From Spirochaetia bacterium (GTDB lineage: Bacteria > Spirochaetota > Spirochaetia > DSM-27196 > Salinispiraceae), in the NCBI GenBank assembly GCA_038204425.1, contig JBBRCZ010000002.1, forward strand, positions 96,001-160,000: a stretch of 64,000 nt of DNA. The letters are read 5' to 3'. Below are positions 15,531 through 28,678 of this stretch, piece by piece; within the stretch, counting starts at the first letter, position 1; every line of letters begins with the position of its first letter. The notes under the pieces are model-generated. The model made no database searches, was not told the origin of the DNA, and saw nothing but the letters and a program-made list of their open reading frames with translations. The position numbers and the translations under genes are program-made.

Positions 15531-16085
15531 ATGAGTAAACAAGAACAGGCAACAGAAATAAGCCAGCGGCAGCGCCTCAGCGAGGCTTATCAAAGCGAGA
15601 AGCCTCGCTTTTTGGCAAGACTCAAGAAAGCTGGCAAGACCTTAGAAGAGGCAGAAGACATGCTGCATGAGCTGTATGCCGAAACCATTGAGCGATTGCC
15701 GCTTATGACGGGGGTGCGAAACGTGCCAGCTTGGATTAACTCTCTGCTCAGTCGTCGTTTAATCGATGCCTGGCGACACCAGAAAGTGCGCCATGCCTCC
15801 GGCGAAACGGATGTTGCAGAAGACACCCTGCGTGAGATTATTGCCGGCGCCGGCCTTAATCCGCTGGATGCCTTCGTGCAAGAGAGCATACTTGACGCGC
15901 TCAACGACGCCTTGCGGGCCTTGCCGGATGCGCAGCGTCGCGTCATAGAAGCTCAAGTTTTTGGTGGCAAGAGCTTTAAGGATATCGCTCAAGCCAGCGG
16001 AGAAAGCATAGACACAATAAGTGCGCGTAAACGCTACGCGCTTCGCAACCTTTCACACGCTCTACGCGAGTGGATAGAAGATTAA
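15531..16085 (+). CDS. ECF-type RNA polymerase sigma factor
   Basis: EAEDMLHE (region 2), AWI...RLIDAWR, ALRALPDAQRRV...GKSFKDIA (region 4 HTH). Confidence 0.88.
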   Translation: MSKQEQATEISQRQRLSEAYQSEKPRFLARLKKAGKTLEEAEDMLHELYAETIERLPLMTGVRNVPAWINSLLSRRLIDAWRHQKVRHASGETDVAEDTLREIIAGAGLNPLDAFVQESILDALNDALRALPDAQRRVIEAQVFGGKSFKDIAQASGESIDTISARKRYALRNLSHALREWIED

Positions 16086-16086
16086 A

Positions 16087-16500
16087 GTGGGCCACAAGGG
16101 CCATAGGAGCAAGATTATGGGTGACGGAAGAAGCGAAAAAAGAGAAATGGAAGACTGGTGGGAAGACCGGAGCTTGCCACAAAAAATAGCAGCCGGCATA
16201 GCCTTGGGAATATTGGGCATAGCTTTTCTGGCCCTGTGTGGCTGGATGCTTATGTCACTGTGGAACTGGCTAATGCCCGATATCTTTGGTCTCAAGACCA
16301 TCGACTACTGGCAAGCCTGGGGACTGTTTATTCTGTCGATGATCTTTTTTCATGGTGGAAGCAGCTCTGGCTCAAATGGACGCCGCAGTGAGCGTAAACG
16401 CAAACGCCATCTGCGCCAAGCTATGCAGGATCCGGAGTCCATGCCAATCAATCTGCAAGAACCATTGGCGCAAGCACAAAGTGAGCCTAAGCCAGAATAA
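16087..16500 (+). CDS. Small membrane protein downstream of the ECF sigma factor
   Basis: Two hydrophobic segments with LWNWLMPDIFGL...YWQAWGL. Start codon uncertain. Confidence 0.7.
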   Translation: MGHKGHRSKIMGDGRSEKREMEDWWEDRSLPQKIAAGIALGILGIAFLALCGWMLMSLWNWLMPDIFGLKTIDYWQAWGLFILSMIFFHGGSSSGSNGRRSERKRKRHLRQAMQDPESMPINLQEPLAQAQSEPKPE

Positions 16501-17556: not shown

Positions 17557-17967
17557 CTAGATTGCTTTGCCACATTGGAAGCATTCACGCCTATAACTAG
17601 AATTTTCTGCGCCGCATGAGGAACATTTTACGGCTGCAATACCGCTGACGGTTGATCTGGAGTTTGGTCTCGGCGCAGCAGGCACATGCGGCGCTCTGAC
17701 TGGTTCTTCTAACTTTATAGCTTCTGTACTATCTATACTGTCCTTAACTGAGTCTGGTTCTTGTTCCTTGTGAACGTTTGCAAGGCCGGTCGTGTCGGTG
17801 CTAACACCGCCTAGACCCACATTGACATTTATAGTTTGACGACCTGCTCGTTCATCTTCAGAAAACGACTGCCGACTCGATTGGGTAGGCTTTGTTCGCA
17901 GAAGTTGCAATTGCACGACAATAATTACGAGAAGTAAGAGGCAAGCGACCTGAAAAAACACATCCAT
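17557..17967 (-). CDS. Single-TM protein with C-terminal zinc ribbon
   Basis: N-terminal hydrophobic helix; CSSCG...CFQCG. Start trimmed to MDVFF, 7 nt after TATAAT. Confidence 0.7.
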   Translation of the reverse strand: MDVFFQVACLLLLVIIVVQLQLLRTKPTQSSRQSFSEDERAGRQTINVNVGLGGVSTDTTGLANVHKEQEPDSVKDSIDSTEAIKLEEPVRAPHVPAAPRPNSRSTVSGIAAVKCSSCGAENSSYRRECFQCGKAI

Positions 17968-18105
17968 AGCAGTCATTATAAGCCGGACATCGGGCTTTGT
18001 CTTAGTCAACTCTCATTTATTGCGCTTGGCAAACCGATAATATTTTTGGTAGACCAACACTTTGCTAGATCTACACTAAAGAGCACTGGAGACTATGTTT
18101 AAACT

Positions 18106-18864
18106 ATGAAGCCAAAGCAGCTCACCGAAATGTCTGATGAGGAAGTGCTCCTTCAAGAAAACATGAATCTTATCGCCACAGGACTCTTTGCCTGCCAAAC
18201 CGAAGAACAAGTAGATCTTGCGGTAAGTTTTGCTCGTTATCTTAGTTCCAACGGACTTACCCGCAGCAACTATTCTTTGTTTTTACGCTTGATTGCTAGC
18301 AACAACCATTGGGTAGTGGACAGTTTAATCGGTGAGCGCCAAGCTCGATTGATGTTTGCCTCTATTCCCCCCAGTACCTCTTTGATCAAAGACGCCTTTT
18401 CGGTGCTCTCCTTCTTTCATTCAGACATAATCTACCAAAAGACCCTTGAGGCGGCTTTGGGTGTCATTCAAATGGCTTACTACGACCCTGACGACGGCTA
18501 CAATATTTACAAACTGCGCATCTCAGATATCAATACCCTTGGAAAATACCTTGAGAAGGACAAAGAACAGGGCCAGCCCATTAACGCTCTAGTCTTGGAA
18601 ATTTTGGATAGATTGAGCGGAATTGGCGACTACAACAAAGTACCTGCTAAAAACGTCTTAGCGCGCCATTCGTTCTATGTTCGTATTGCATATTTTGACC
18701 ACAGAAAAAATCTCGAAGACGTAATTCCACAAGTTTTGCTCTATAATGCAAGTAGGCGTAAGGTAGTGACCAACCCAAGTCAAATCTATCGAGAAGCCCT
18801 CAAGCGCGAGCAAGCAGGTTCCGCCAAGGTTAAGGCAGGCACTGCGGGCACAAAGGAAGATTGA
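18106..18864 (+). CDS. Unknown-family helical protein, paralog 1 (most divergent copy)
   Basis: Shares ACQTEE, NY, NHWVVD, IYQKTL, DGYNIY, DINTLGKYL, ILD, IPQVLL blocks with the three ORFs at 21021-23223. Confidence 0.85.
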   Translation: MKPKQLTEMSDEEVLLQENMNLIATGLFACQTEEQVDLAVSFARYLSSNGLTRSNYSLFLRLIASNNHWVVDSLIGERQARLMFASIPPSTSLIKDAFSVLSFFHSDIIYQKTLEAALGVIQMAYYDPDDGYNIYKLRISDINTLGKYLEKDKEQGQPINALVLEILDRLSGIGDYNKVPAKNVLARHSFYVRIAYFDHRKNLEDVIPQVLLYNASRRKVVTNPSQIYREALKREQAGSAKVKAGTAGTKED

Positions 18865-19784
18865 TGAGCCAAGCAAGTGAGCAAGAACTACGATCCCTTG
18901 AAGCCGTTATAAAAAACATCCAAGACTATCCGTATCGCATCAAAACCAAAGATGGCAAGCCTGGCGGTCTAATTGAGCTGCCAGAAACGATAGTTCCGAT
19001 TGTAGTCGGTGACTTACATACCGCTCTGGACAATTTAAAAGCCATTTTGAAGCACGATGACAATCATGCCAAGGTTCGCTCTGGAGAACGTACGCTTGTT
19101 TTTATTGGTGACATTATCCACAGTGACCAAACCGGCTTTATGAAAGACATGACAAGTTCGGTAGAGATTTTTACCTATATAATTGAAATCATGGCCGAAC
19201 GCCCCAAGGGGTTTATCTATTTAAAAGGTAACCATGACACCTTTGACGATCGACTAGTCAAAAGCGGCATTCTGCAAGGCAAAGAGTTTCGCAAAACACT
19301 AATTGAACAAAAAGGTCAAGCTTACACCGAAGCCGTAGAACAGCTATTTGATACCTTGCCACTTTTTATCAAAGGCAACGGCTTCATAATTACGCACGCT
19401 GGCCCGATTCGTGGTGGCAGTACGCGCGACGAGTTGATCAATATAAGAGACTATCCCGACAAACTGCATCAGTTGCTTTGGAATCGCGCTCATGAATTTC
19501 GCGGAACGCCTAGTCCAAAAGAATATGATGGAAAGGATATTGACGCAACTCTTGCAAAGCTGGGCATGAAGGACGATACTTTGTTTATTGTTGGGCATAA
19601 TCCTTTGTGGGGCACCGGAGAAAAGACGGGCATTTGGATGAATGTGACTGATATTCTCAATCACCACATTATTGTATCTAGTCCGGGCACACTCGCACCG
19701 TATTTCCTAATCCAGGATCAAAAACTGGAAGCCCGTTTTGCTAATGGCATTCAGAAAGAGGAACGGTACCACTATGGTGAATGA
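18861..19784 (+). CDS. Calcineurin-like metallophosphoesterase (PPP-type protein phosphatase-like)
   Basis: GDLH, GDIIH, GNHD, THAG, LLWNR, GHN motifs. Confidence 0.88.
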   Translation: MMSQASEQELRSLEAVIKNIQDYPYRIKTKDGKPGGLIELPETIVPIVVGDLHTALDNLKAILKHDDNHAKVRSGERTLVFIGDIIHSDQTGFMKDMTSSVEIFTYIIEIMAERPKGFIYLKGNHDTFDDRLVKSGILQGKEFRKTLIEQKGQAYTEAVEQLFDTLPLFIKGNGFIITHAGPIRGGSTRDELINIRDYPDKLHQLLWNRAHEFRGTPSPKEYDGKDIDATLAKLGMKDDTLFIVGHNPLWGTGEKTGIWMNVTDILNHHIIVSSPGTLAPYFLIQDQKLEARFANGIQKEERYHYGE

Positions 19785-20697
19785 ACAGAGCAGCCTGATA
19801 TCGATTGTACATGACCAAGATCTGATAGACTATTTTTACTTACAAAAGCCACTCGATGAACTAGTCGACATAATTGAGGGTCTGACCTTTAGCAAGTGTG
19901 GCAACTGTCACGACATTCCTTTTAATGCCTCAGTCAAAGGCTACCTCGGTGCAGTGGACAATAATGACCAAGCCTGGATTGTTAAACCAATCATTGGCGA
20001 AAAAGACACACTTTATCATCGCATAACTCAATTGGTGTACCTGTTGGATTTTCAGATGGCCACCCTTTCAACCCCTACCATGGTGTTAACCATCGATGGA
20101 AAAAAATATCGCGGTGCCAAAGTAGTGCCTAACTGCATCCAAATTTCCAGCTATGATTATTTAAAACAACCTTTTCTAAACATACTTACCAAGGATCTGA
20201 TAAATCGATGGCTTCAGTTTGATGAAGACCGCAATCCCAACAACTACATGGTGCTCAGAAACTCCAAAGACTATCCTTTGGTGGTGGCAATCGATTTTGA
20301 CAAGTCCGACTTAGAAAGTGAAGAAAATAAAATCGTAGGCACCGATGACAAGTTTGGCTGGATTCGGCACGAAAAGAACCGCTATCTTACCATGCTTAAG
20401 ACAGAAAACTTTGATAGGGTACCGCTTTCCGTCTTCGAAAAAAGACTTGAGCTAATGATGGCAATCGACCTTACCAAATTTGGATCCATAGCCACACGAC
20501 TCTTAGAAGGCTATTGTCCAGACCCTAAGGCTAAGGCACAGCAGATTATGGCCAATATCAAAAAGCGTAGAGAGTACATAAATAGCTACTTCCGAAAGTG
20601 GTTTAACGACCAAGACCAAGGCGCCATAAAAAAAGAAGAAGACGCCTACTCAGAAATGGGCGCCACCTTTATGAAAATGTATCGCAACAGCAAATAA
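19774..20697 (+). CDS. HipA/PI3-4-kinase-like atypical kinase
   Basis: AWIVK (beta3 Lys), DEDRNPNNY (catalytic loop), AIDFD (Mg-binding loop). Start trimmed to MVNEQ after GAGGAA. Confidence 0.75.
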   Translation: MVNEQSSLISIVHDQDLIDYFYLQKPLDELVDIIEGLTFSKCGNCHDIPFNASVKGYLGAVDNNDQAWIVKPIIGEKDTLYHRITQLVYLLDFQMATLSTPTMVLTIDGKKYRGAKVVPNCIQISSYDYLKQPFLNILTKDLINRWLQFDEDRNPNNYMVLRNSKDYPLVVAIDFDKSDLESEENKIVGTDDKFGWIRHEKNRYLTMLKTENFDRVPLSVFEKRLELMMAIDLTKFGSIATRLLEGYCPDPKAKAQQIMANIKKRREYINSYFRKWFNDQDQGAIKKEEDAYSEMGATFMKMYRNSK

Positions 20698-20896
20698 ACC
20701 TTTAACTCAGTAGACATAGTTATCCTCAAAATTCTGCATAACTGTTGGTCTTTTTTGGCAGCCCGTTGTGAGACCTGGACTTTGGTTTTTTTTTCAATTT
20801 GGTCGTTAACTGATTTATAGGCAATAATTTACAAAATGATTTACTGCGCTAAATATGAGTGTTGTCGTCATGTATTATAACTTAATCAAAAAATAT

Positions 20897-20925
20897 TTGA
20901 CAAGCAGTTTTTGGAGCACTAAGCT
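20897..20925 (+). promoter_or_regulatory. sigma70 promoter of the three-paralog operon
   Basis: TTGACA-N17-TAAGCT preceded by an A-rich tract. Confidence 0.7.
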
Positions 20926-21020
20926 GGAGATATGCAGTACTTAAGCGAAGATATTGTTAACTCCTAGCTTGGCTAATGGAAAAAATACTTTCGCTCAACT
21001 ATCGTCACAAGGAGGAATAG

Positions 21021-21719
21021 ATGGACAAGCAGACAGAAAAAATTATCGAACTGCAATGGTCCAAAGAGTCGATCATGGAAGTCGAAATCCAAATATTGGA
21101 AAACATGATTGGATGTCGAACGGTCGAAGCAGTTGAGGCCGCGGTTAGTTATGCGCGTTTCTTACACCTTTCCGGTTTGAACAACGACAACTATCCGTTG
21201 TTTCTTAAACTTCTAGAAGTTGAGAACCATTGGGTCATCGATGCCATGCTCGGACAAAAAGACCCATTTTTGTTATTGAGCCCTATCCAGCCCAACAACT
21301 ACCTGATTCAGCAAGACTTTAAGTTGCTGACCAAGTGGCACCCCGGTGGAATATATCCTAAGACTCTTGCTATCGTTTTGGGTATATTGCAGGCTGCATA
21401 CGCCTCGGCTAAAGACGGTAACAAGATCTATAAGGTCAGTATCAATGATGCCAACAATCTAGCCAAACATCTCAACAAGGAAACTGGCCAAGAAGATCCC
21501 AATAATCGTTGTATCCTTGACATTTTGGACCGACTTGGTTCTTTGGCCGGTGCTACTACCGACAACGAGATAGAGCAAATGGCTCGTCAAACCAACAGTA
21601 TTAGAACATTCTTTTTTGATAAGCGAAAGAAAATGGAAGATATTATTCCTCAAGTTCTCTTGGTTAAGTCGGACTACATCGCCAAAGAAACAGTTCCTGA
21701 AAAACTATTTGTGAATTAA
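21021..21719 (+). CDS. Unknown-family helical protein, paralog 2
   Basis: SD AAGGAGG; GCRTVE, NYPLFL, NHWVID, IQPN, IYPKTL, KHL, ILDILD, IPQVLL. Confidence 0.88.
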   Translation: MDKQTEKIIELQWSKESIMEVEIQILENMIGCRTVEAVEAAVSYARFLHLSGLNNDNYPLFLKLLEVENHWVIDAMLGQKDPFLLLSPIQPNNYLIQQDFKLLTKWHPGGIYPKTLAIVLGILQAAYASAKDGNKIYKVSINDANNLAKHLNKETGQEDPNNRCILDILDRLGSLAGATTDNEIEQMARQTNSIRTFFFDKRKKMEDIIPQVLLVKSDYIAKETVPEKLFVN

Positions 21720-21734
21720 GAAAGGAGGTACAAA

Positions 21735-22451
21735 ATGGTTGAGCTTTACGAAAAAAAAGAATCGTGGAATAACGAACAGATCTTTCAGATTGAATACAGC
21801 CTGTTAAAAGGCATAATGGGTTGCCGAACTACCGAAGCGGTAGAGGCATCAATGACCTACTCCAGCTTTCTCAACAGTGTAGGTATCACCAATGCCAACT
21901 ACCCTATATTTCTGAAGGTACTCACAACTAGGAACCATCACGTCATAGATTCCCTGCTCGGAACCCGTGACCCGTTCTTGTTTATGAGCTCCATTCAGCC
22001 AAACTACTTTATTGTAGCCACCTGTTTTAGCATACTTGCCAAGTATCTTAAGGGCGAAATATACCCAAAAACGCTTGGAATCATCCTTGGCGTGTTTCAG
22101 GCAACTTTTAATACGCCCCTTGACGGCTACAAAATTTACCCGCCTACTATAGCTGATATTAATAGTCTGGGTAAACACTTGGTAGAAGAAAAGGGTCAAG
22201 ACGACCTACTCAATCGCAGTATTCTGGACATTCTCGACAAAATGAGTGCACTTGAAGGACTTAATGTTGACGAAGATATGGAAGATCTTGCGGTGCATAG
22301 CCACAACATCCGAAACAACTTTTTCGATTCGGCTAAGAGGCTAGTAGAGGTGATACCGGAAGTATTGTTGCGCACCGAGCCCAACATGGAAAAAGATGTT
22401 GAGCCACGACGACAGGTTCCGACAGCTGAAGCTGATAAAGTTGCTGAATAG
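21735..22451 (+). CDS. Unknown-family helical protein, paralog 3
   Basis: SD AAGGAGGT; GCRTTE, NYPIFL, NHHVID, IQPN, IYPKTL, LGKHL, ILDILD, IPEVLL. Confidence 0.88.
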   Translation: MVELYEKKESWNNEQIFQIEYSLLKGIMGCRTTEAVEASMTYSSFLNSVGITNANYPIFLKVLTTRNHHVIDSLLGTRDPFLFMSSIQPNYFIVATCFSILAKYLKGEIYPKTLGIILGVFQATFNTPLDGYKIYPPTIADINSLGKHLVEEKGQDDLLNRSILDILDKMSALEGLNVDEDMEDLAVHSHNIRNNFFDSAKRLVEVIPEVLLRTEPNMEKDVEPRRQVPTAEADKVAE

Positions 22452-22518
22452 GCAGTTTTGAGAGCACAGTGACCTGGCGGTCAAAACCGCCAGGCGGTAT
22501 CCCTTTCAGGAGATAGAT

Positions 22519-23223
22519 ATGGCTGTACCAAACAAAGAGTTAGACAGAAATGAGCACGGCTGGCCCAAGGAAGAGATTGATGCTCTCGAGCTGACTGTCT
22601 TGAAAGAGATAATTGCTTGCAAAGAAGGTTGGGGCGTTAGTGCTGCTATGCGCTTTGCTTCATATATGAGCAAAAAAGTTGGCTTAAACTCCGACAACTA
22701 CCCAATTTTCTTTGACCTCATTGAGACAGGAAACAAATTTGTAATTGATACGCTCACCAAAGATGCCGCCCCCGAAACCTATTTTAAGGCAATTCAACCA
22801 AACGGCTTTATGATAGGAGAGTGTCTGCGAATGCTAACGTATTGGCAGTCTGGGGCGGTCTATGCCAAGAGCCTTCAGATCATATTTGGAATCCTAAAGC
22901 AGACCTATGAGAGTGCCACTGACGGCTATCGCTTGTACAAAATCGATATTCCTGAGGTCAATAACCTTGGTAAGCATCTGGACAAAGAAAAAGATCAGCG
23001 TGATCCGGTAAACCGCATCATCTTGTATATTTTAGACAAGATTGCTGGTCTTGTTGAGCCAGGTCAAGAAATTAGTGATCAAGCCTTGCTGGATGTTGCT
23101 ACCCAAGCAAATCACATTCGGGGTAAGTTCTTGGATCTTGACAAGACTCTCAACGAAGCTATTCCAGACTTGCTCTTGATTAAGGGTGACCTTACTCGAG
23201 TAGATATTGCTCCCTTAGAATAA
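22519..23223 (+). CDS. Unknown-family helical protein, paralog 4
   Basis: SD AGGAG; IAC, NYPIF, NKFVID, IQPN, VYAKSL, DGYRLY, LGKHL, ILD, IPDLLL. Confidence 0.88.
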   Translation: MAVPNKELDRNEHGWPKEEIDALELTVLKEIIACKEGWGVSAAMRFASYMSKKVGLNSDNYPIFFDLIETGNKFVIDTLTKDAAPETYFKAIQPNGFMIGECLRMLTYWQSGAVYAKSLQIIFGILKQTYESATDGYRLYKIDIPEVNNLGKHLDKEKDQRDPVNRIILYILDKIAGLVEPGQEISDQALLDVATQANHIRGKFLDLDKTLNEAIPDLLLIKGDLTRVDIAPLE

Positions 23224-23255
23224 ACATTGCTACGATGGAACTACGCTCATTTATG

Positions 23256-23287
23256 AAAGCTGCTTACCAAGGTAGGCAGCTTTTTTT
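23256..23287 (+). terminator. Rho-independent terminator
   Basis: AAAGCTGCTTACC-AA-GGTAGGCAGCTTTTTTT hairpin plus U-tract. Confidence 0.8.
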
Positions 23288-23320: not shown

Positions 23321-24994
23321 TTAGCGACTTATGAAAATATCGCGGCTTGGTTGAATAATATCTGGGCTGCTAAGTACTGGATTGAGAACAATAAGTTTTT
23401 TAATAAATGCCTGCCAGCCATCCGCAACAAGTTCTTGAGAACCGCTAAATTTTAGCTCACCTTTTTTAATTGCTTCAAAAAGCACCCACAGACTCTGGCC
23501 ACTTGCCGCCTGCCAAACTTGCCTGCCTTCTATGGTGGCTATCTTTGCTTGCGTGTCATTATCTGGTGGTACATTTTCTATAGTATCAACTTGGTAGTGT
23601 TGGCTAGTTGCCTTCTCCTGAGTGTGATTGTTAAATATAAGCAGTAAAATGAGCACTACAATTGCTGCGCCGACTATCCCCGTGACTAACCAATGCTTGC
23701 GAGAAAAGCGCTGCAAACCAAGGCTATGCGGCACATTGTTCTCAATTTGCTTGCTGCTCGCTATATTTTGCGGTGATTGTGAACGTGTATGTTCTAGAAC
23801 TTCCAAGAGATGGCTGAGTTCTTTGCTCTTGCGATTAAAACTGATCTGATAGCGCTGACGTGTTTTGTTGTCGCCTGGCACAAGTTCGCTTGCGGACAAA
23901 ATATTTGGCTCATTCGCTTGGCCTGGCTGGGCAGGTTCTACTTTCTCAAGTGATTTGTTCTCGGAATCAGTCGAGTCAGCTAGGGCAGAAGCACTGGCAC
24001 TGTCCTCTGACGTTTTGGGCACGTGCATTGATGGGGGCTCAACTTGCTTATCTGAGTTTACTGATAGCGCTGATTTCTTAGCAAGTGGCTCTTGTTGCTT
24101 AAAAGGGTCGAGCTCTGGTGGCAAAGTTTCTTTGATCTGCCCAAGCGCGGCGATGGCCTTATTGGGCGGGACGTGTTTCTTGTTTGATAAAGCACTCACG
24201 GCTCGCAGCAGAGCTTGTTGGGCCCAAAAGTCCTCTTGAGACTGAGCCTCAGCCTGTGGCAGCATGTTCTTCTCGGGGATTAAAGCTTTTTTTGTGCTCA
24301 CATCTTGGTTCCAATCAAAAGCATCTTTGTCTACTTCTTCGTCAACATGGCTGTCCGCCAAAACAGAGGCTTGACGCTTTTCTACGTCCTTAATAACATC
24401 GCTTAGCTCAAGCATTGCTTCCAAGGCAATTTTTTCTATAATCGGAGGTAGCGGTGCATCAATCCGGCTCAAAAGTAAGTAGATAATTGCTCGATTTTGA
24501 TCGTAGAGATTATTACGGCAAAGTAGCTGGATAAGAAACAAGACAACGTTTTCTTTGTCAAAATTTGACTCAAAGAGATTAATTTGCAAGGCCTGATAAA
24601 TTGCTCGGTGGTAAGTCAAAAAAACTCGATCGGTGATCTCTTGGCTGATTTCATAGGGTATAGGCAATTCACCAGAAAAGAAGTGTTTATCAATAAATGC
24701 TCTGTCCCGTTTGGTTAGTTTGCCCGCCAGATGGCTATAGAATAGTTCGGAAATTTCTAGGGCAGGCAGATTGAGGTTGCGAAGACAGACTAAGGAAATT
24801 AGCTTTTCTTCAAGCGTGTCCACTTTGCCAAGGTGCTCAAGTATAATAGTCCTTAGCTGGGCATTGTCTTCAGGGTGCAGTTTAATTTCCAATAAAATAC
24901 GCGACAGTTCGGCTTCGGTTTGGTCACACCACGAATGCAAGCGAGCAAAACGCAGGCATTGCTCGAGTTTGGTGACAAAGGAAGCTTGTTCCAT
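23321..24994 (-). CDS. Bitopic membrane protein: helical N-domain, low-complexity linker, TM, LysM-like C-terminus
   Basis: TM WLVTGIVGAAIVVLILLLIF; C-terminal GQSLW...LNPVLSSPDIIQP resembles LysM. Confidence 0.65.
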   Translation of the reverse strand: MEQASFVTKLEQCLRFARLHSWCDQTEAELSRILLEIKLHPEDNAQLRTIILEHLGKVDTLEEKLISLVCLRNLNLPALEISELFYSHLAGKLTKRDRAFIDKHFFSGELPIPYEISQEITDRVFLTYHRAIYQALQINLFESNFDKENVVLFLIQLLCRNNLYDQNRAIIYLLLSRIDAPLPPIIEKIALEAMLELSDVIKDVEKRQASVLADSHVDEEVDKDAFDWNQDVSTKKALIPEKNMLPQAEAQSQEDFWAQQALLRAVSALSNKKHVPPNKAIAALGQIKETLPPELDPFKQQEPLAKKSALSVNSDKQVEPPSMHVPKTSEDSASASALADSTDSENKSLEKVEPAQPGQANEPNILSASELVPGDNKTRQRYQISFNRKSKELSHLLEVLEHTRSQSPQNIASSKQIENNVPHSLGLQRFSRKHWLVTGIVGAAIVVLILLLIFNNHTQEKATSQHYQVDTIENVPPDNDTQAKIATIEGRQVWQAASGQSLWVLFEAIKKGELKFSGSQELVADGWQAFIKKLIVLNPVLSSPDIIQPSRDIFISR

Positions 24995-25232: not shown

Positions 25233-26243
25233 TCAATAAAAACGGGCAAGGTCCCATGTCTTGGTGAGTGCATTTCCTTGCAGCATGTGGTTTGCCAATT
25301 CAAGAGCGCACGCTGGTGCATACATAAATCCACGCGCGCCGAGGCCATTTAAAACATACAAGCCACCGTGCTCCGGCACCTTGCCTATAATTGGATTTCT
25401 ATCATCACAAATGGGTCTAACAGCCGAAATGCTGCCTTGCGTTTGCCACGTGCTCTGGTGCTCGTTACCCAAAAGTTCGTCAAGCAATTGCTCTAGCGCA
25501 AGAGCCAAATCTGCGGTTACCTTGGCATCGTCTTGCAGCGACTGTGGCAGTGCCCACTGGTAGTTGGCCCCAAAGCGCCAATGTATGCCTTGTTCATCTT
25601 CAGGAAGCAAGAAATGCTGCAAAAAGACTCCGCCTGGCAAAGCAGCTAATGGTAAATTTGCATTAGTTATCGCAGGCTTGTGACTCGTAAAACCCTCGGG
25701 TCTGGGCTTGCCTGTTTTAATGAGCAGGTATGTGCCGCTGGCCGCCTTCCAGCGAATACGTGACAACAGTGGATCAAACTTGGCTGAGTAACCAGTACAG
25801 AGCACCAGCAAGGGTGCGCTCAGTCCTGCACATTGCCAGCTGCTGCTGTCGCTCACATAAGTGGCCTGCGCGGCCGTGTGCCAGTAACACAAGCGCTTCA
25901 GCTGAGAACGCAGCACGCGCATATTAACCCTTAGGCCCTCAGATTTGACTGACCAAGACTTGTCTTGTTTTGTAAGAAACTCCTGCGTCCTTATACACTC
26001 AGGACTGTGATGGAGATACCATTCACGCGCTTGCAAAAACAAACGTTGCACGAGGCTTTGGTCGCGAGCTTTGCCAAGCAAATAAGGGTGCATCATGGCC
26101 GATGCCACGTCGCTTGCTCCGAGATCTGGGGCACTATCGATAATTGCCACCCGTAGTCCGCGGGTGTTTAATTCCAATGCCAAGCTGCATGATGCAATGC
26201 CGGCGCCAAGAATTAGACAGTCAAACTGGGTTTCATGATTCAT
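25233..26243 (-). CDS. FAD-dependent oxidoreductase (DAO/MnmC C-terminal-like)
   Basis: LGAGIAS, GASDVAS, AVRPICDDRNPIIG, NGLGARG motifs; ATGA-coupled to the upstream gene. Confidence 0.8.
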   Translation of the reverse strand: MNHETQFDCLILGAGIASCSLALELNTRGLRVAIIDSAPDLGASDVASAMMHPYLLGKARDQSLVQRLFLQAREWYLHHSPECIRTQEFLTKQDKSWSVKSEGLRVNMRVLRSQLKRLCYWHTAAQATYVSDSSSWQCAGLSAPLLVLCTGYSAKFDPLLSRIRWKAASGTYLLIKTGKPRPEGFTSHKPAITNANLPLAALPGGVFLQHFLLPEDEQGIHWRFGANYQWALPQSLQDDAKVTADLALALEQLLDELLGNEHQSTWQTQGSISAVRPICDDRNPIIGKVPEHGGLYVLNGLGARGFMYAPACALELANHMLQGNALTKTWDLARFY

Positions 26244-28678
26244 TGCGAGCGATAAGCTTCTAGAGTTCGAGCGGCCTTTGCTAGCCAAGCATGGGCGTTG
26301 GAATTGCGATCCTCGTTTTGCCAGCCATCGTAGACAGCAATTAGTCTGGCGCTCATGGTTTTTTGCAGAACAGCAGACGGTGTGGTGCTCAAGAGCTCGG
26401 CACAGTTGTTCAAAAGGTGAGCCGCCCAGGCTCTCACACTTGTTGCTGGCGACTTTGCCAAGCTTTCTAGTGCTGGCACAAAGTCTAGACTCGCTTGTTT
26501 TATCATGCTGCTAATTAGCCAGTTTTGTGTTGCTGGAGCATAGGTCCGCATTCTGAGACTGAGAAACAATAGGCTTTGCAGATCCCATTGGCCATCGAGT
26601 AGGCGCGCGTACTCGATGACCCTGAGTTCAGGAGCAAAAAAGGTTTCGCGGTGTAGCTTGACAAAGTCAGCTATCAAAGATGAAGGGTTGGTTTGCTTGC
26701 GCAGCAGATACCAAGCTGCCAAGTAGCGCAGTTCAGAAAATTCCTCTTTTTGGGTGTTTAAAATCTTTTGAGATAAAACTATAACTAGTTGGTCATCGTA
26801 GTTAAATATCGCGCGCATGGCGGCAAGTTCGTTCTCTTCACTAAATTTGTTGCCAAGCCACAAGTCAAAAGATTTGATAAGCACGGGTAGCAGGGTCGCA
26901 TAGCCTTGCTGGACGTTTAGCCGTGCAAGTGCTTCTAAACAGGCATAGTTGAGACTGTCCTCGCGACTTGGATCAATGTTGGCAATTATGGCAGCTATGG
27001 CTGTTTTATCCGCAAATTGAGCCAGAGCGTTAACCGCAAAGAGACGCAAGCTATAGTCGTCGTTGTTGAGACTACGTGGCGTCAAGAGCAGCTCTTTGAG
27101 ATATTGGGTCATGCGCCGGTCACCTATTTGGCTTAGCGACTCAGCCGCTGCGATTCTCAGTGCGATGGGCTCTCGTGAGTTTTTTAGAATTGTAGCTAAA
27201 GCCAGCAATGCACGGGCGTCGCGAATTGTTCCCAATCCTCGGACTGCCAAGATTCTTATAATAGTGTCCTCGTCAGCAAGACCTTGGTTAAAATTGCTGT
27301 ACATAGTGCCTTGGGCAAATCGAACCAAACCTTCCATCACTAAGCGGCGAACCAAGCCGTTAGGGTGGGTGCTGAGGACAGCAATACTGCCAATACTGGT
27401 CTGCCCGCCAACTACAACCGTGGTCTTTATGCTGGGAATCAAACAGGCAATCTGATTGCTGTTTTGTAGCTCAAGGCAAGCCTGCAAAAATTTTTGCTCA
27501 AAAGCAAGACGGCTTGGATTGTTTTCGCTTGCATCGATTGGCAATGACTGTTGTTTGTTCTGGATTAAGTCTTTGTATGCAAAAAAATAGCGATCTTCAA
27601 GCACAGCCGCTGCAAGGCTCGGTCGCTTACTATCAATTGCTGAGAGAAACTCTTGCTCGCTAAGCTTCTCGCCACGTGCACTAGCGCAATAGTAAATCGA
27701 GTAGGCTTCCCAATCATTTGCTGTTTTCGAAAGCTGACTTAGCGGTGGAAACTGCAAGGATGCTTGTCGATTGTTGCCAGGCAATTTGGCCAAAAAAATT
27801 CGACTTATAGCCTTGAGTCTCAAGTTTGAGGAGACTGCCCAAGAGTGCAGATTGGGCTCAAGTCCTTGCCACAGTTTGTCGTTTACCGGACTAGTTTTGG
27901 TAAACGGATTAAATAGATTTGCTTTATCGCTTGCCAAAAGACCCATCAATAGAGTGCTAAATTCGTCCTCACTTGGATTTGCTTCCAAAAAGTCCTTCCA
28001 ATAGATGTCTTCCAACTTGCGAGATGTCCAAGGCAGCAGATTAAGCAGGGCAATCTCGCTTCCGAGAAACTTTTTTTGCAGAGCCCTCAGGCTGGCACTA
28101 TCGTGGTTCTTGTCTTTGATCCACAGTGGCCAACGCATGAGCTCACTAATTAGAAATGCGCGCCCCTCAAAATCAATAGTTTTGGATAGTTGTTCGCTGA
28201 TGGTAACTAGGACTTGCTCTCTATGGGTATTGAGGCCCAAGGGGTTGGTGCTTGTAAGGTTGAGGTGCCTATGCGGAGCGTTTAAATAATAGACAAGAGC
28301 TGATTCCGGATAGTCGCTGAGGCTGTCCAAGAGGGGGACAAGAGCTATGGTGTTGCTTATTTTTTTTGCCAAAGCTGCAACTAGGCTTTGAGCAAGGTTT
28401 TGCCTGATCCGCGGGTTGTCACGTAGATCTTGTACCCAATAAGGCTTGATAGTTTCGACTATCGGTGCCAGAAAATCTGCTCGGGCAAAGTAGCTCTGAT
28501 ACAAAGTCAGGCGCTCACTTGGCTGGGCCTTTTGCAGCCAGGCCGCAAGCTGGTCTTGCTTGTCAAAGGCAGGCAAAAGTGGCTGAGTTTGAGCGCTCAA
28601 TGGGACTATGATCGCCAAAGAAAGGATAACTATGCATGGGGTCAGGCACCGCTTTGCGATGGGTTTATTATTGTTCAT
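26240..28678 (-). CDS. Exported HEAT-repeat protein
   Basis: Signal-peptide-like N-terminus; repeats such as IRILAVRGLG, LRIAAAESLSQIGD, LRLFAVNALA. Confidence 0.75.
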   Translation of the reverse strand: MNNNKPIAKRCLTPCIVILSLAIIVPLSAQTQPLLPAFDKQDQLAAWLQKAQPSERLTLYQSYFARADFLAPIVETIKPYWVQDLRDNPRIRQNLAQSLVAALAKKISNTIALVPLLDSLSDYPESALVYYLNAPHRHLNLTSTNPLGLNTHREQVLVTISEQLSKTIDFEGRAFLISELMRWPLWIKDKNHDSASLRALQKKFLGSEIALLNLLPWTSRKLEDIYWKDFLEANPSEDEFSTLLMGLLASDKANLFNPFTKTSPVNDKLWQGLEPNLHSWAVSSNLRLKAISRIFLAKLPGNNRQASLQFPPLSQLSKTANDWEAYSIYYCASARGEKLSEQEFLSAIDSKRPSLAAAVLEDRYFFAYKDLIQNKQQSLPIDASENNPSRLAFEQKFLQACLELQNSNQIACLIPSIKTTVVVGGQTSIGSIAVLSTHPNGLVRRLVMEGLVRFAQGTMYSNFNQGLADEDTIIRILAVRGLGTIRDARALLALATILKNSREPIALRIAAAESLSQIGDRRMTQYLKELLLTPRSLNNDDYSLRLFAVNALAQFADKTAIAAIIANIDPSREDSLNYACLEALARLNVQQGYATLLPVLIKSFDLWLGNKFSEENELAAMRAIFNYDDQLVIVLSQKILNTQKEEFSELRYLAAWYLLRKQTNPSSLIADFVKLHRETFFAPELRVIEYARLLDGQWDLQSLLFLSLRMRTYAPATQNWLISSMIKQASLDFVPALESLAKSPATSVRAWAAHLLNNCAELLSTTPSAVLQKTMSARLIAVYDGWQNEDRNSNAHAWLAKAARTLEAYRSQ

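Follow-up and report, generated by a model that had tools for sequence, protein, structure and literature searches.

The outputs known for bacterial partner switching and Ser/Thr signaling consist largely of sigma factors, along with a small number of enzymes. Here, a six-gene cluster was analyzed in which a phosphatase gene and a kinase-like gene are encoded with four paralogs of a helical protein family. It lies in a window of 64,000 nt (the whole stretch of DNA studied, namely positions 96,001-160,000 of the plus strand of contig JBBRCZ010000002.1, assembly GCA_038204425.1) from a Spirochaetia bacterium of the Salinispiraceae. The cluster resembles partner-switching systems (RsbW kinase, STAS antagonist, and SpoIIE/RsbU phosphatase of the PP2C type) in that a Ser/Thr kinase-phosphatase pair is encoded with small non-enzymatic proteins that are putative phosphorylation-dependent partners; in addition, related spirochaete gene pairs, termed A-B below, lie inside such an operon (e.g., at locus L075). 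However, no STAS, HATPase_c_2, or PP2C domain was found in the cluster by Pfam scan, its kinase has a predicted PI4K/CtkA-type fold, its phosphatase is a PPP-like metallophosphoesterase, and it encodes no sigma factor or known output. PknB/PstP-type operons likewise have adjacent and overlapping kinase and phosphatase genes, and a Hanks-type (pseudo)kinase is encoded in 27 loci related to the one described here; in contrast to those operons, the module kinase has no Pkinase match and so falls outside the Hanks type, its phosphatase does not belong to PP2C, and the paralogs have no counterpart.

A dedicated kinase-phosphatase switch is thus of a known kind, whereas the helical paralog family is undescribed, and no account of the module was found in the titles and abstract openings returned by full-text literature searching. 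The reading favored here, to which an even chance is given, is that the locus is a conserved, undescribed phospho-signaling module in which the paralogs form a hetero-oligomeric hub controlled by phosphorylation. Its six genes, taken from the list of open reading frames (ORFs) of the window, all lie on the plus strand at the positions originally given for them:

18106..18864, plus strand: par1, a helical paralog of subfamily D, 252 aa (ORF aligning with par2-4; member of the phosphatase-adjacent clade)
18861..19784, plus strand: PPP-like, calcineurin-type metallophosphoesterase, 307 aa, a probable protein Ser/Thr phosphatase (Pfam PF00149, motifs, and profile matches)
19774..20697, plus strand: atypical kinase with a protein-kinase-like fold (AlphaFold2 model, Foldseek, and invariant residues)
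21021..21719, plus strand: par2, subfamily A, first gene of the ancestral A-B pair, 232 aa (tree, AlphaFold2 model, and predicted par3 binding)
21735..22451, plus strand: par3, subfamily B, second gene of that pair, 238 aa (tree and complex score)
22519..23223, plus strand: par4, subfamily C, third gene of the trio, 234 aa (34 of 36 position-3 genes in a single clade; seen in spirochaete loci)

The overlapping start and stop regions noted earlier for the first three genes are present, the par1 stop overlapping the phosphatase start and the phosphatase stop overlapping the kinase start. The longest ORF for the kinase runs from a TTG at 19738 to 20697; the form held in databases has 307 aa, which implies a start at the ATG at 19774.

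The four paralogs align end to end, with par1 30-36% identical to the other three and 43 columns invariant, and each matches the joint profile of the four at expectation (E) values of 1e-106 to 1e-118, far beyond chance, establishing their paralogy. All nine motif blocks on which the original prediction had based a single family are visible in the alignment, and its failure to recognize that family is borne out by database searching: par1-4 have no match in Pfam, NCBIfam, PADLOC, or PDB sequences. When 101 family members were scanned singly against Pfam, no consistent weak match emerged (the commonest, ANTH, was seen in 3 of 101), and none of the 101 matched the Arm/HEAT models at E≤1. A word-indexed search recovered 361 family proteins at E≤0.001, every named one being "hypothetical", and in an exhaustive search of 1.84 billion representatives the family proved compact, with 217 clusters at 50% identity. 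Among the matches listed by the latter, the longest has 373 aa and the members stand alone; no longer protein carrying a fused paralog domain was found among 7999 scored candidates of 563-2000 aa, which is weak evidence. A 354-aa match with an epimerase C-terminus was rejected as a fusion, being probably a chimeric gene call. A distant, shorter branch was also seen, consisting of proteins of ~185-191 aa (P0323-P0360) that match profile positions 20-214 at E values of 1e-20 to 1e-28 and have no Pfam domain. The source genome (2.84 Mb, 24 contigs, 95.6% complete) holds only the four copies described here, as determined by profile search. One homolog is attributed in its record to Spirochaeta cellobiosiphila, a cultured species.

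The AlphaFold2 model of par2, built on 101 sequences, comprises twelve helices, with a mean predicted local distance difference test score (pLDDT) of 93.5 and a predicted template-modeling score of 0.87. Foldseek returned nothing for this model at E≤0.001, its top rows being designed helical repeats, TOG, and armadillo structures at template-modeling (TM) scores of ~0.3, and no viral structure in BFVD matched at E≤0.001. The Foldseek-independent tool VIA-align gave a best Z of 8.1 and many rows resembling armadillo (ARM) or HEAT repeats at Z 6.5-7.8, within the helical-repeat background stated for the tool, and ESM Atlas recognition of par2 was below the tool's threshold, with only unnamed viral clusters at 0.91-0.92. 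In its modeled solenoid of about twelve helices, the family resembles ARM/HEAT scaffolds such as CNOT9, the mDia1 inhibitory domain, and designed armadillo proteins (VIA-align Z 7.5-8.1), though with Z values inside the background, low Foldseek TM scores, and no Arm/HEAT profile match. The modeled fold is a generic all-helical, ARM/HEAT-like alpha-solenoid for which no specific relative emerged. In the alignment of the 101 members, 15 columns do not vary; these are mostly polar (N, K, Q, D), and many fall outside the predicted dimer interface discussed below. Three of the conserved Asn residues (57, 69, and 92) immediately precede the first residue of a helix in the par2 model, a placement that suggests helix capping rather than catalysis.

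To place the cluster in its wider genomic setting, one genome per species was scanned, giving 153 confirmed matches, and 79 loci were kept and mapped by extracting ORFs of ≥70 aa and clustering those of ≥90 aa. By phylum label, 53 of these loci belong to Spirochaetota, 12 to Acidobacteriota, 6 to Myxococcota, and 5 to Desulfobacterota, with 3 unlabeled. The kinase gene occurs in 32 of the 79 (31 spirochaete-labeled and 1 unlabeled) and is accompanied by the phosphatase gene in 30, the other two being cut at the locus edge. The full set, namely par1-phosphatase-kinase plus a trio of paralogs corresponding to par2-4, is present in 25 loci, and the six genes are kept together in many free-living spirochaetes. 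In 9 of the 25 full sets the trio is inverted relative to the first three genes, indicating that the two units are linked but separately transcribed, as the original prediction had proposed. Co-occurrence of the paralogs with the enzymes, a check set beforehand, was also examined, for the kinase, in 301 genomes drawn evenly from the phylum. Paralogs were found in 15 of these, from 13 of 126 genera. The kinase was found in 11 genomes, each of them a paralog carrier, and always on the same contig, ~0.05-1.2 kb from a paralog match; the genomic linkage is thus strict, and the check favors the original prediction. The remaining four genomes have paralogs without the kinase, and two of these are 83-85% complete. 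Besides the six-gene and pair types, some spirochaetes have tandem arrays of four or five paralogs, in which the kinase is more divergent (E ~1e-70) and lies in the opposite orientation (loci L034, L065, and L082; genomes G230, G155, G106, and G176).

A tree of 228 profile-trimmed paralogs (FastTree, LG+gamma, midpoint root), from which the rest of a 317-member cluster was left out as partial, poorly covered, or unmatched ORFs, sorts the paralogs by their position in the locus. All 26 phosphatase-adjacent genes fall in their best clade (subfamily D; support 0.991), in agreement with the earlier description of par1 as the divergent paralog, here a distinct subfamily always found beside the phosphatase. 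Within the trios, 34 of 36 genes fall in the best clade at each of position 1 (support 0.336), position 2 (0.937), and position 3 (subfamily C; 0.619); within loci that carry a pair of paralogs, the corresponding figures are 32 of 34 for both position 1 (0.996) and position 2 (0.988). The first genes of trios and pairs group together as subfamily A (support 0.877), and the second genes as subfamily B (0.962), so that in the window par2 belongs to A, par3 to B, par4 to C, and par1 to D. Spirochaete and non-spirochaete copies of subfamily A are 55-58% identical, and C and D are seen only in spirochaete-type loci. Because genes from trios and from pairs come together in A, and likewise in B, an A-then-B pair is the ancestral core in all four phyla; judged from these sequence comparisons, the four subfamilies are ancient and position-fixed.

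Association of A and B was examined by modeling par2 with par3 on paired 70-sequence alignments (67 rows used) alongside three controls. The interaction prediction score from aligned errors (ipSAE) was 0.87, 0.87, and 0.85 in the three runs, versus 0.00 for the best control, with ≥93% of contacts in common among runs and partner pLDDT of ≥89. Among solved complexes 116 of 157 attain the mark used for ipSAE, and among mismatched pairs 2 of 215 do so; for the custom alignments employed here, these counts are only a rough guide. The predicted interface is pseudo-symmetric and is formed by N-terminal helices (~residues 13-63 and 8-61) together with both C-terminal tails. A-B binding is thereby supported at the level of prediction, and with it, for par2 and par3, the hetero-oligomer of paralogs suggested by the original prediction. 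The filament, polymeric scaffold, or shell offered there as examples fared less well, as the modeled interface describes a closed, pseudo-symmetric N-terminal dimer and not a head-to-tail contact.

No kinase family in Pfam or NCBIfam (including PF00454 and PF07804) matches the kinase at E≤1, and a profile of 63 kinase orthologs matched no PDB chain at E≤10. The protein has 179 uncharacterized relatives, and no Pfam domain was found in any of the 120 listed. In contrast, its AlphaFold2 model (pLDDT 88.3) has a two-lobed kinase fold with 83 Foldseek matches at E≤0.001, led by CtkA (3akj; E 2.1e-5, TM 0.47-0.52) and followed by PI4KIIIbeta, PI4KIIalpha, PI3K, and CotH. The designation as a HipA/PI3K-like kinase, first drawn from short motifs, therefore finds its support in predicted structure, and the model makes the protein a member of this fold class outside every named sequence family. 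Three elements are invariant in the 63 sequences: K71, which lies within a predicted strand at 67-72; DEDRNPNNY (D152-R-N-P-N-N157); and AID174, as part of AIDxD. By analogy with the kinase fold, these are presumably the ATP-binding lysine, the catalytic loop (DRNPNN), and the metal-binding aspartate (D174). The invariant D-R-N-x-x-N followed by I-D is shared with the CtkA/HipA-like, PI4K, PI3K, and CotH group, whereas the module differs from HipA systems in having no HipB-like partner; neither a HipA domain nor a helix-turn-helix domain was matched in any of the six cluster proteins at E≤1 in Pfam.

The phosphatase scores 41.5 bits on PF00149 (Metallophos; E 2.6e-10), for which the curated cut-off is 21.5, and this upholds its initial assignment as a calcineurin-like metallophosphoesterase. 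Metal-binding motifs in this superfamily are D-x-H, G-D, G-N-H-[DE], H, and G-H, and all of them are present: GDLH53, GD84..H87, GNHD126, H179, and GH246 are invariant in 31 orthologs. The best matches of the ortholog profile are the PPP-type enzymes BSU1 (5.7e-7) and PP5 (5.5e-4), with an ApaH-like enzyme (2.4e-3) and calcineurin (0.027) after them, suggesting that the enzyme is a probable PPP-like protein Ser/Thr phosphatase. It is nevertheless very divergent: the PPP signature is GDxHG / GDxVDRG / GNHE, while the module enzyme has GDLHT / GDIIHSD / GNHD, with DRG missing from the second motif, and no NCBIfam equivalog was found (best 14.6 bits vs a cut-off of 150). Because the kinase carries invariant motifs on a kinase fold and the phosphatase combines its own invariant residues with PPP-type relatives, both enzymes look active.

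The A-B pair also occurs in at least 26 loci without this kinase and phosphatase, and in other lineages it is found with other signaling proteins. Among spirochaete pair loci, 11 have an RsbW-like HATPase_c_2 kinase ahead of the pair and 11 have a 358-aa protein without a named family behind it, 9 loci showing both; at L075, two STAS proteins come after the 358-aa protein, and genes for a SpoIIE phosphatase, a ParA/MinD ATPase, and an HDOD protein are divergent. In non-spirochaete loci, the pair is followed by a receiver-domain protein with a long tail in 19 loci; the tail of the L020 protein, ~550 residues long, repetitive, and E/K-rich, looks like a coiled coil, a domain plan also seen in FrzS and AglZ of Myxococcus. 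GGDEF proteins (11 loci) and PilZ proteins are encoded near some pair loci as well. In addition, a small third protein (median 78 aa, core LLKAC.KYR..IP.YL.S) is a conserved ORF with the pair in 26 loci, and in 5 more by profile, and never occurs in kinase loci (0 overlap). Across 20 full-length sequences, the Hanks-type neighbor found in 27 loci shows no conservation of the VAIK lysine, the HRD aspartate, or DFG, and it is classed as a pseudokinase. The small third protein was found neither in the gap between the two units of the cluster (20698-21020) nor in the window (best E 0.2), nor in the source genome by a profile search that had no positive control; the pseudokinase was not found in that genome with one query. 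With neither companion found there, the window holds a reduced, six-gene form.

Further observations concern these companions. The 358-aa protein (cluster 10; L075:9425-10498 and 10 other loci) begins 1-4 bp after the A-B pair and is internally duplicated, a ...GRYYAY...LKG...RPE.E.[FY]PSY... unit occurring twice. Neither Pfam nor PDB sequences gave a match for this protein, and it was rejected as a relative of the kinase or of the paralogs (hhalign probabilities of 0.2 and 0.1 against the respective profiles). A protein of ~150 aa encoded beside the ParA/MinD gene (cluster 7; L075:5478-5927 and L072:307-771, both on the minus strand, and relatives) contains two copies of the small-third-protein domain, which thus occurs in tandem as well as singly beside the pair. 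The only Pkinase match in the source genome is a canonical Hanks-type domain (190.8 bits) in a 669-aa ORF on another contig (C3:104359-105114, minus strand), unlinked to the module.

In the mechanism proposed, the heart of the module would be an ancient heterodimer of the ARM/HEAT-like helical paralogs A (par2) and B (par3), to which spirochaetes would have added C (par4) as third subunit and D (par1) as fourth paralog. The kinase and phosphatase would reversibly set the phosphorylation of a component of the paralog complex, either a paralog or a client held by it, and the phosphorylation state would switch the binding partners of the complex, as in partner-switching modules. Phosphotransfer onto the complex is inferred here. 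D may act as an adaptor bringing the enzymes to the complex, and it is the best docking candidate because the par1 gene overlaps the phosphatase gene, which in turn overlaps the kinase gene; the output may lie in polarity, motility, or surface-lifestyle control. Across lineages, the A-B pair is encoded with three toolkits, namely the PI4K/CtkA-fold kinase with the PPP-like phosphatase, the RsbW/STAS/SpoIIE partner switch, and the receiver-domain coiled-coil proteins. One helical heterodimer within three non-homologous phospho-signaling toolkits is likely to be the object or organizer of reversible phosphorylation, and this comparison of gene neighborhoods provides the strongest argument for an A-B hub. 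A more far-reaching form of the hypothesis is put forward tentatively, as a possibility we rate well below even: the A-B heterodimer would be the hub of a new class of bacterial phospho-switch, to which three unrelated toolkits were recruited by lineage and which governs a decision at the level of the cell, for example on polarity, motility, or surface lifestyle, with C and D enlarging the oligomer and D docking the enzymes.

Several points weigh against a phosphorylation-controlled hub. The kinase fold is common to lipid kinases (PI4K and PI3K), so a non-protein substrate is possible. No conserved Ser, Thr, or Tyr specific to D was found, the only such residue ≥90% conserved in D being a Tyr common to all four subfamilies. 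The complex test does not discriminate between hetero- and homodimers when paralogs are close, a limit stated for the tool itself; A-B (par2 with par3) is the sole pairing modeled, and physical contact between the enzymes and the paralogs stays hypothetical. With the queries used, the source genome lacks the pseudokinase and the small third protein, both frequent companions, and the idea of a role in polarity or motility draws only on loosely linked neighbors in other lineages.

Other explanations of the same locus were therefore weighed. The paralogs could be regulatory or targeting subunits rather than substrates, holding the enzymes and directing both to outside substrates, much as eukaryotic PP2A uses helical scaffold subunits and PI4KA has solenoid partners. 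The overlap of the par1 stop with the phosphatase start, the helical-repeat fold, the want of a conserved D-specific phospho-acceptor, and a very high conservation typical of multi-partner scaffolds all fit this explanation; however, the A-B pair stands in at least 26 loci without these enzymes, so serving them cannot be its core function, and this explanation is considered rather unlikely. Improbable to a greater degree is the view that the paralogs are enzymes or receptors of a small ligand, such as a nucleotide second messenger, with the kinase acting on a small molecule or lipid. The 15 invariant, mostly polar columns, many of them away from the dimer interface, would suit a binding or active site, GGDEF, PilZ, and HDOD genes lie near some pair loci, and lipid kinases are among the closest folds to the kinase; against this, the paralogs match no enzyme fold in structure or sequence, the placement of Asn 57, 69, and 92 before helix starts suggests capping, and the partner phosphatase resembles protein phosphatases.

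Polymerization of the paralogs into a filament, lattice, or shell, with assembly gated by phosphorylation, would account for several non-interchangeable paralogs in fixed order, for the arrays of four to five paralogs in some genomes, and for ParA/MinD and coiled-coil neighbors in other lineages. It is given little credence, since the predicted A-B interface is that of a closed dimer with tails and the fold searches matched no known cytoskeletal or shell protein. Least credible is a toxin-antitoxin or anti-phage module in which a HipA-like kinase toxin would be paired with a phosphatase antidote; a defense or toxin module was the alternative named in the original prediction. The fold of the kinase is indeed closest to that of HipA-like CtkA, and the distribution is patchy (15 of 301 genomes). 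Nevertheless, PADLOC-DB 2.0 gave only chance-level matches (PDC-S27, E 0.0062, 13.4 bits; Cas2_II, E 0.04), HipA domains are missing at E≤1 in Pfam, and the A-B core occurs without the kinase. With no significant PADLOC match, flanking genes that are housekeeping or regulatory, and a conservation across phyla (55-58% identity in subfamily A) unlike that of defense genes, which evolve fast, the defense reading is weak. The phosphorylation-controlled hub remains the interpretation preferred here.

The remaining features of the locus concern its transcription and its recurrent neighbors:

20698..21020, no strand: 324-bp stretch separating the two units (par2 preceded by AAGGAGG; conserved small ORFs absent)
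23255..23284, plus strand: terminator-like hairpin ending the par2-4 unit (13-bp stem, 5 GC pairs, and a T-rich tail)
23321..24994, minus strand: 557-aa protein without a named family, a recurrent neighbor of the module (a homolog adjoins the cluster in 8 further spirochaete loci)
17557..18009, minus strand: recurrent neighbor of 150 aa whose C-terminus has a zinc-ribbon-like motif (homologs near the cluster in 8 loci)

The hairpin sits between par4 and the convergent 557-aa gene and agrees with the terminator expected after paralogs 2-4. The promoter that the original prediction assigned to this unit was not recovered: a sigma-70 scan found no promoter-like site on the plus strand of the gap. 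Sigma-70-like sites in the scanned region numbered 18 in total, close to a shuffle expectation of 12 ± 3.5. The AAGGAGG ribosome-binding site stands at the end of the gap. The best sigma-70-like site (20874-20903, minus strand; 11/12, TTGTCA, 18 nt, TATAAT) lies within the gap and faces the kinase gene; no gene on the minus strand is apparent there, and the site may be an antisense promoter or a chance match.

The flanking genes encode an ATP-binding cassette transporter, a vitamin uptake transporter, an extracytoplasmic function (ECF) sigma factor, and a dehydrogenase. The 557-aa neighbor has no Pfam family and a hydrophobic stretch near residue 430 of its translation; it was rejected as a relative of the pseudokinase tail (best E 0.019 over 55 low-complexity residues). 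The 150-aa neighbor has weak zinc-ribbon Pfam matches below cut-off. On the strength of their recurrence, these two proteins are candidate module parts at most. The stretch 15531-16500, ~1.6 kb upstream of the module, encodes the ECF-type sigma factor (Sigma70_r4 and Sigma70_ECF) and, after one base, a 137-aa ORF without a Pfam family that may encode its anti-sigma factor. Three kilobases downstream of the module, at 26240-28678 on the minus strand, lies the gene for an 812-aa HEAT-repeat protein (HEAT_2, 2.1e-17; PBS-lyase-type repeats) with a signal-sequence-like N-terminus, a second helical-repeat protein near the module that is unrelated to the paralogs.

If the proposed reading is correct, a widespread and strongly conserved protein family, whose A copies are 55-58% identical across phyla, is named in no database and would be the common target of several phosphorylation toolkits. 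The hypothesis is directly testable, as the module is small, its core dimer is predicted with high confidence, and one homolog is recorded from the cultured species Spirochaeta cellobiosiphila. A hub of this kind would represent a new output for bacterial Ser/Thr signaling and partner switching, and it would provide the first role for the eukaryote-like PI4K/CtkA-fold kinase family of free-living spirochaetes.

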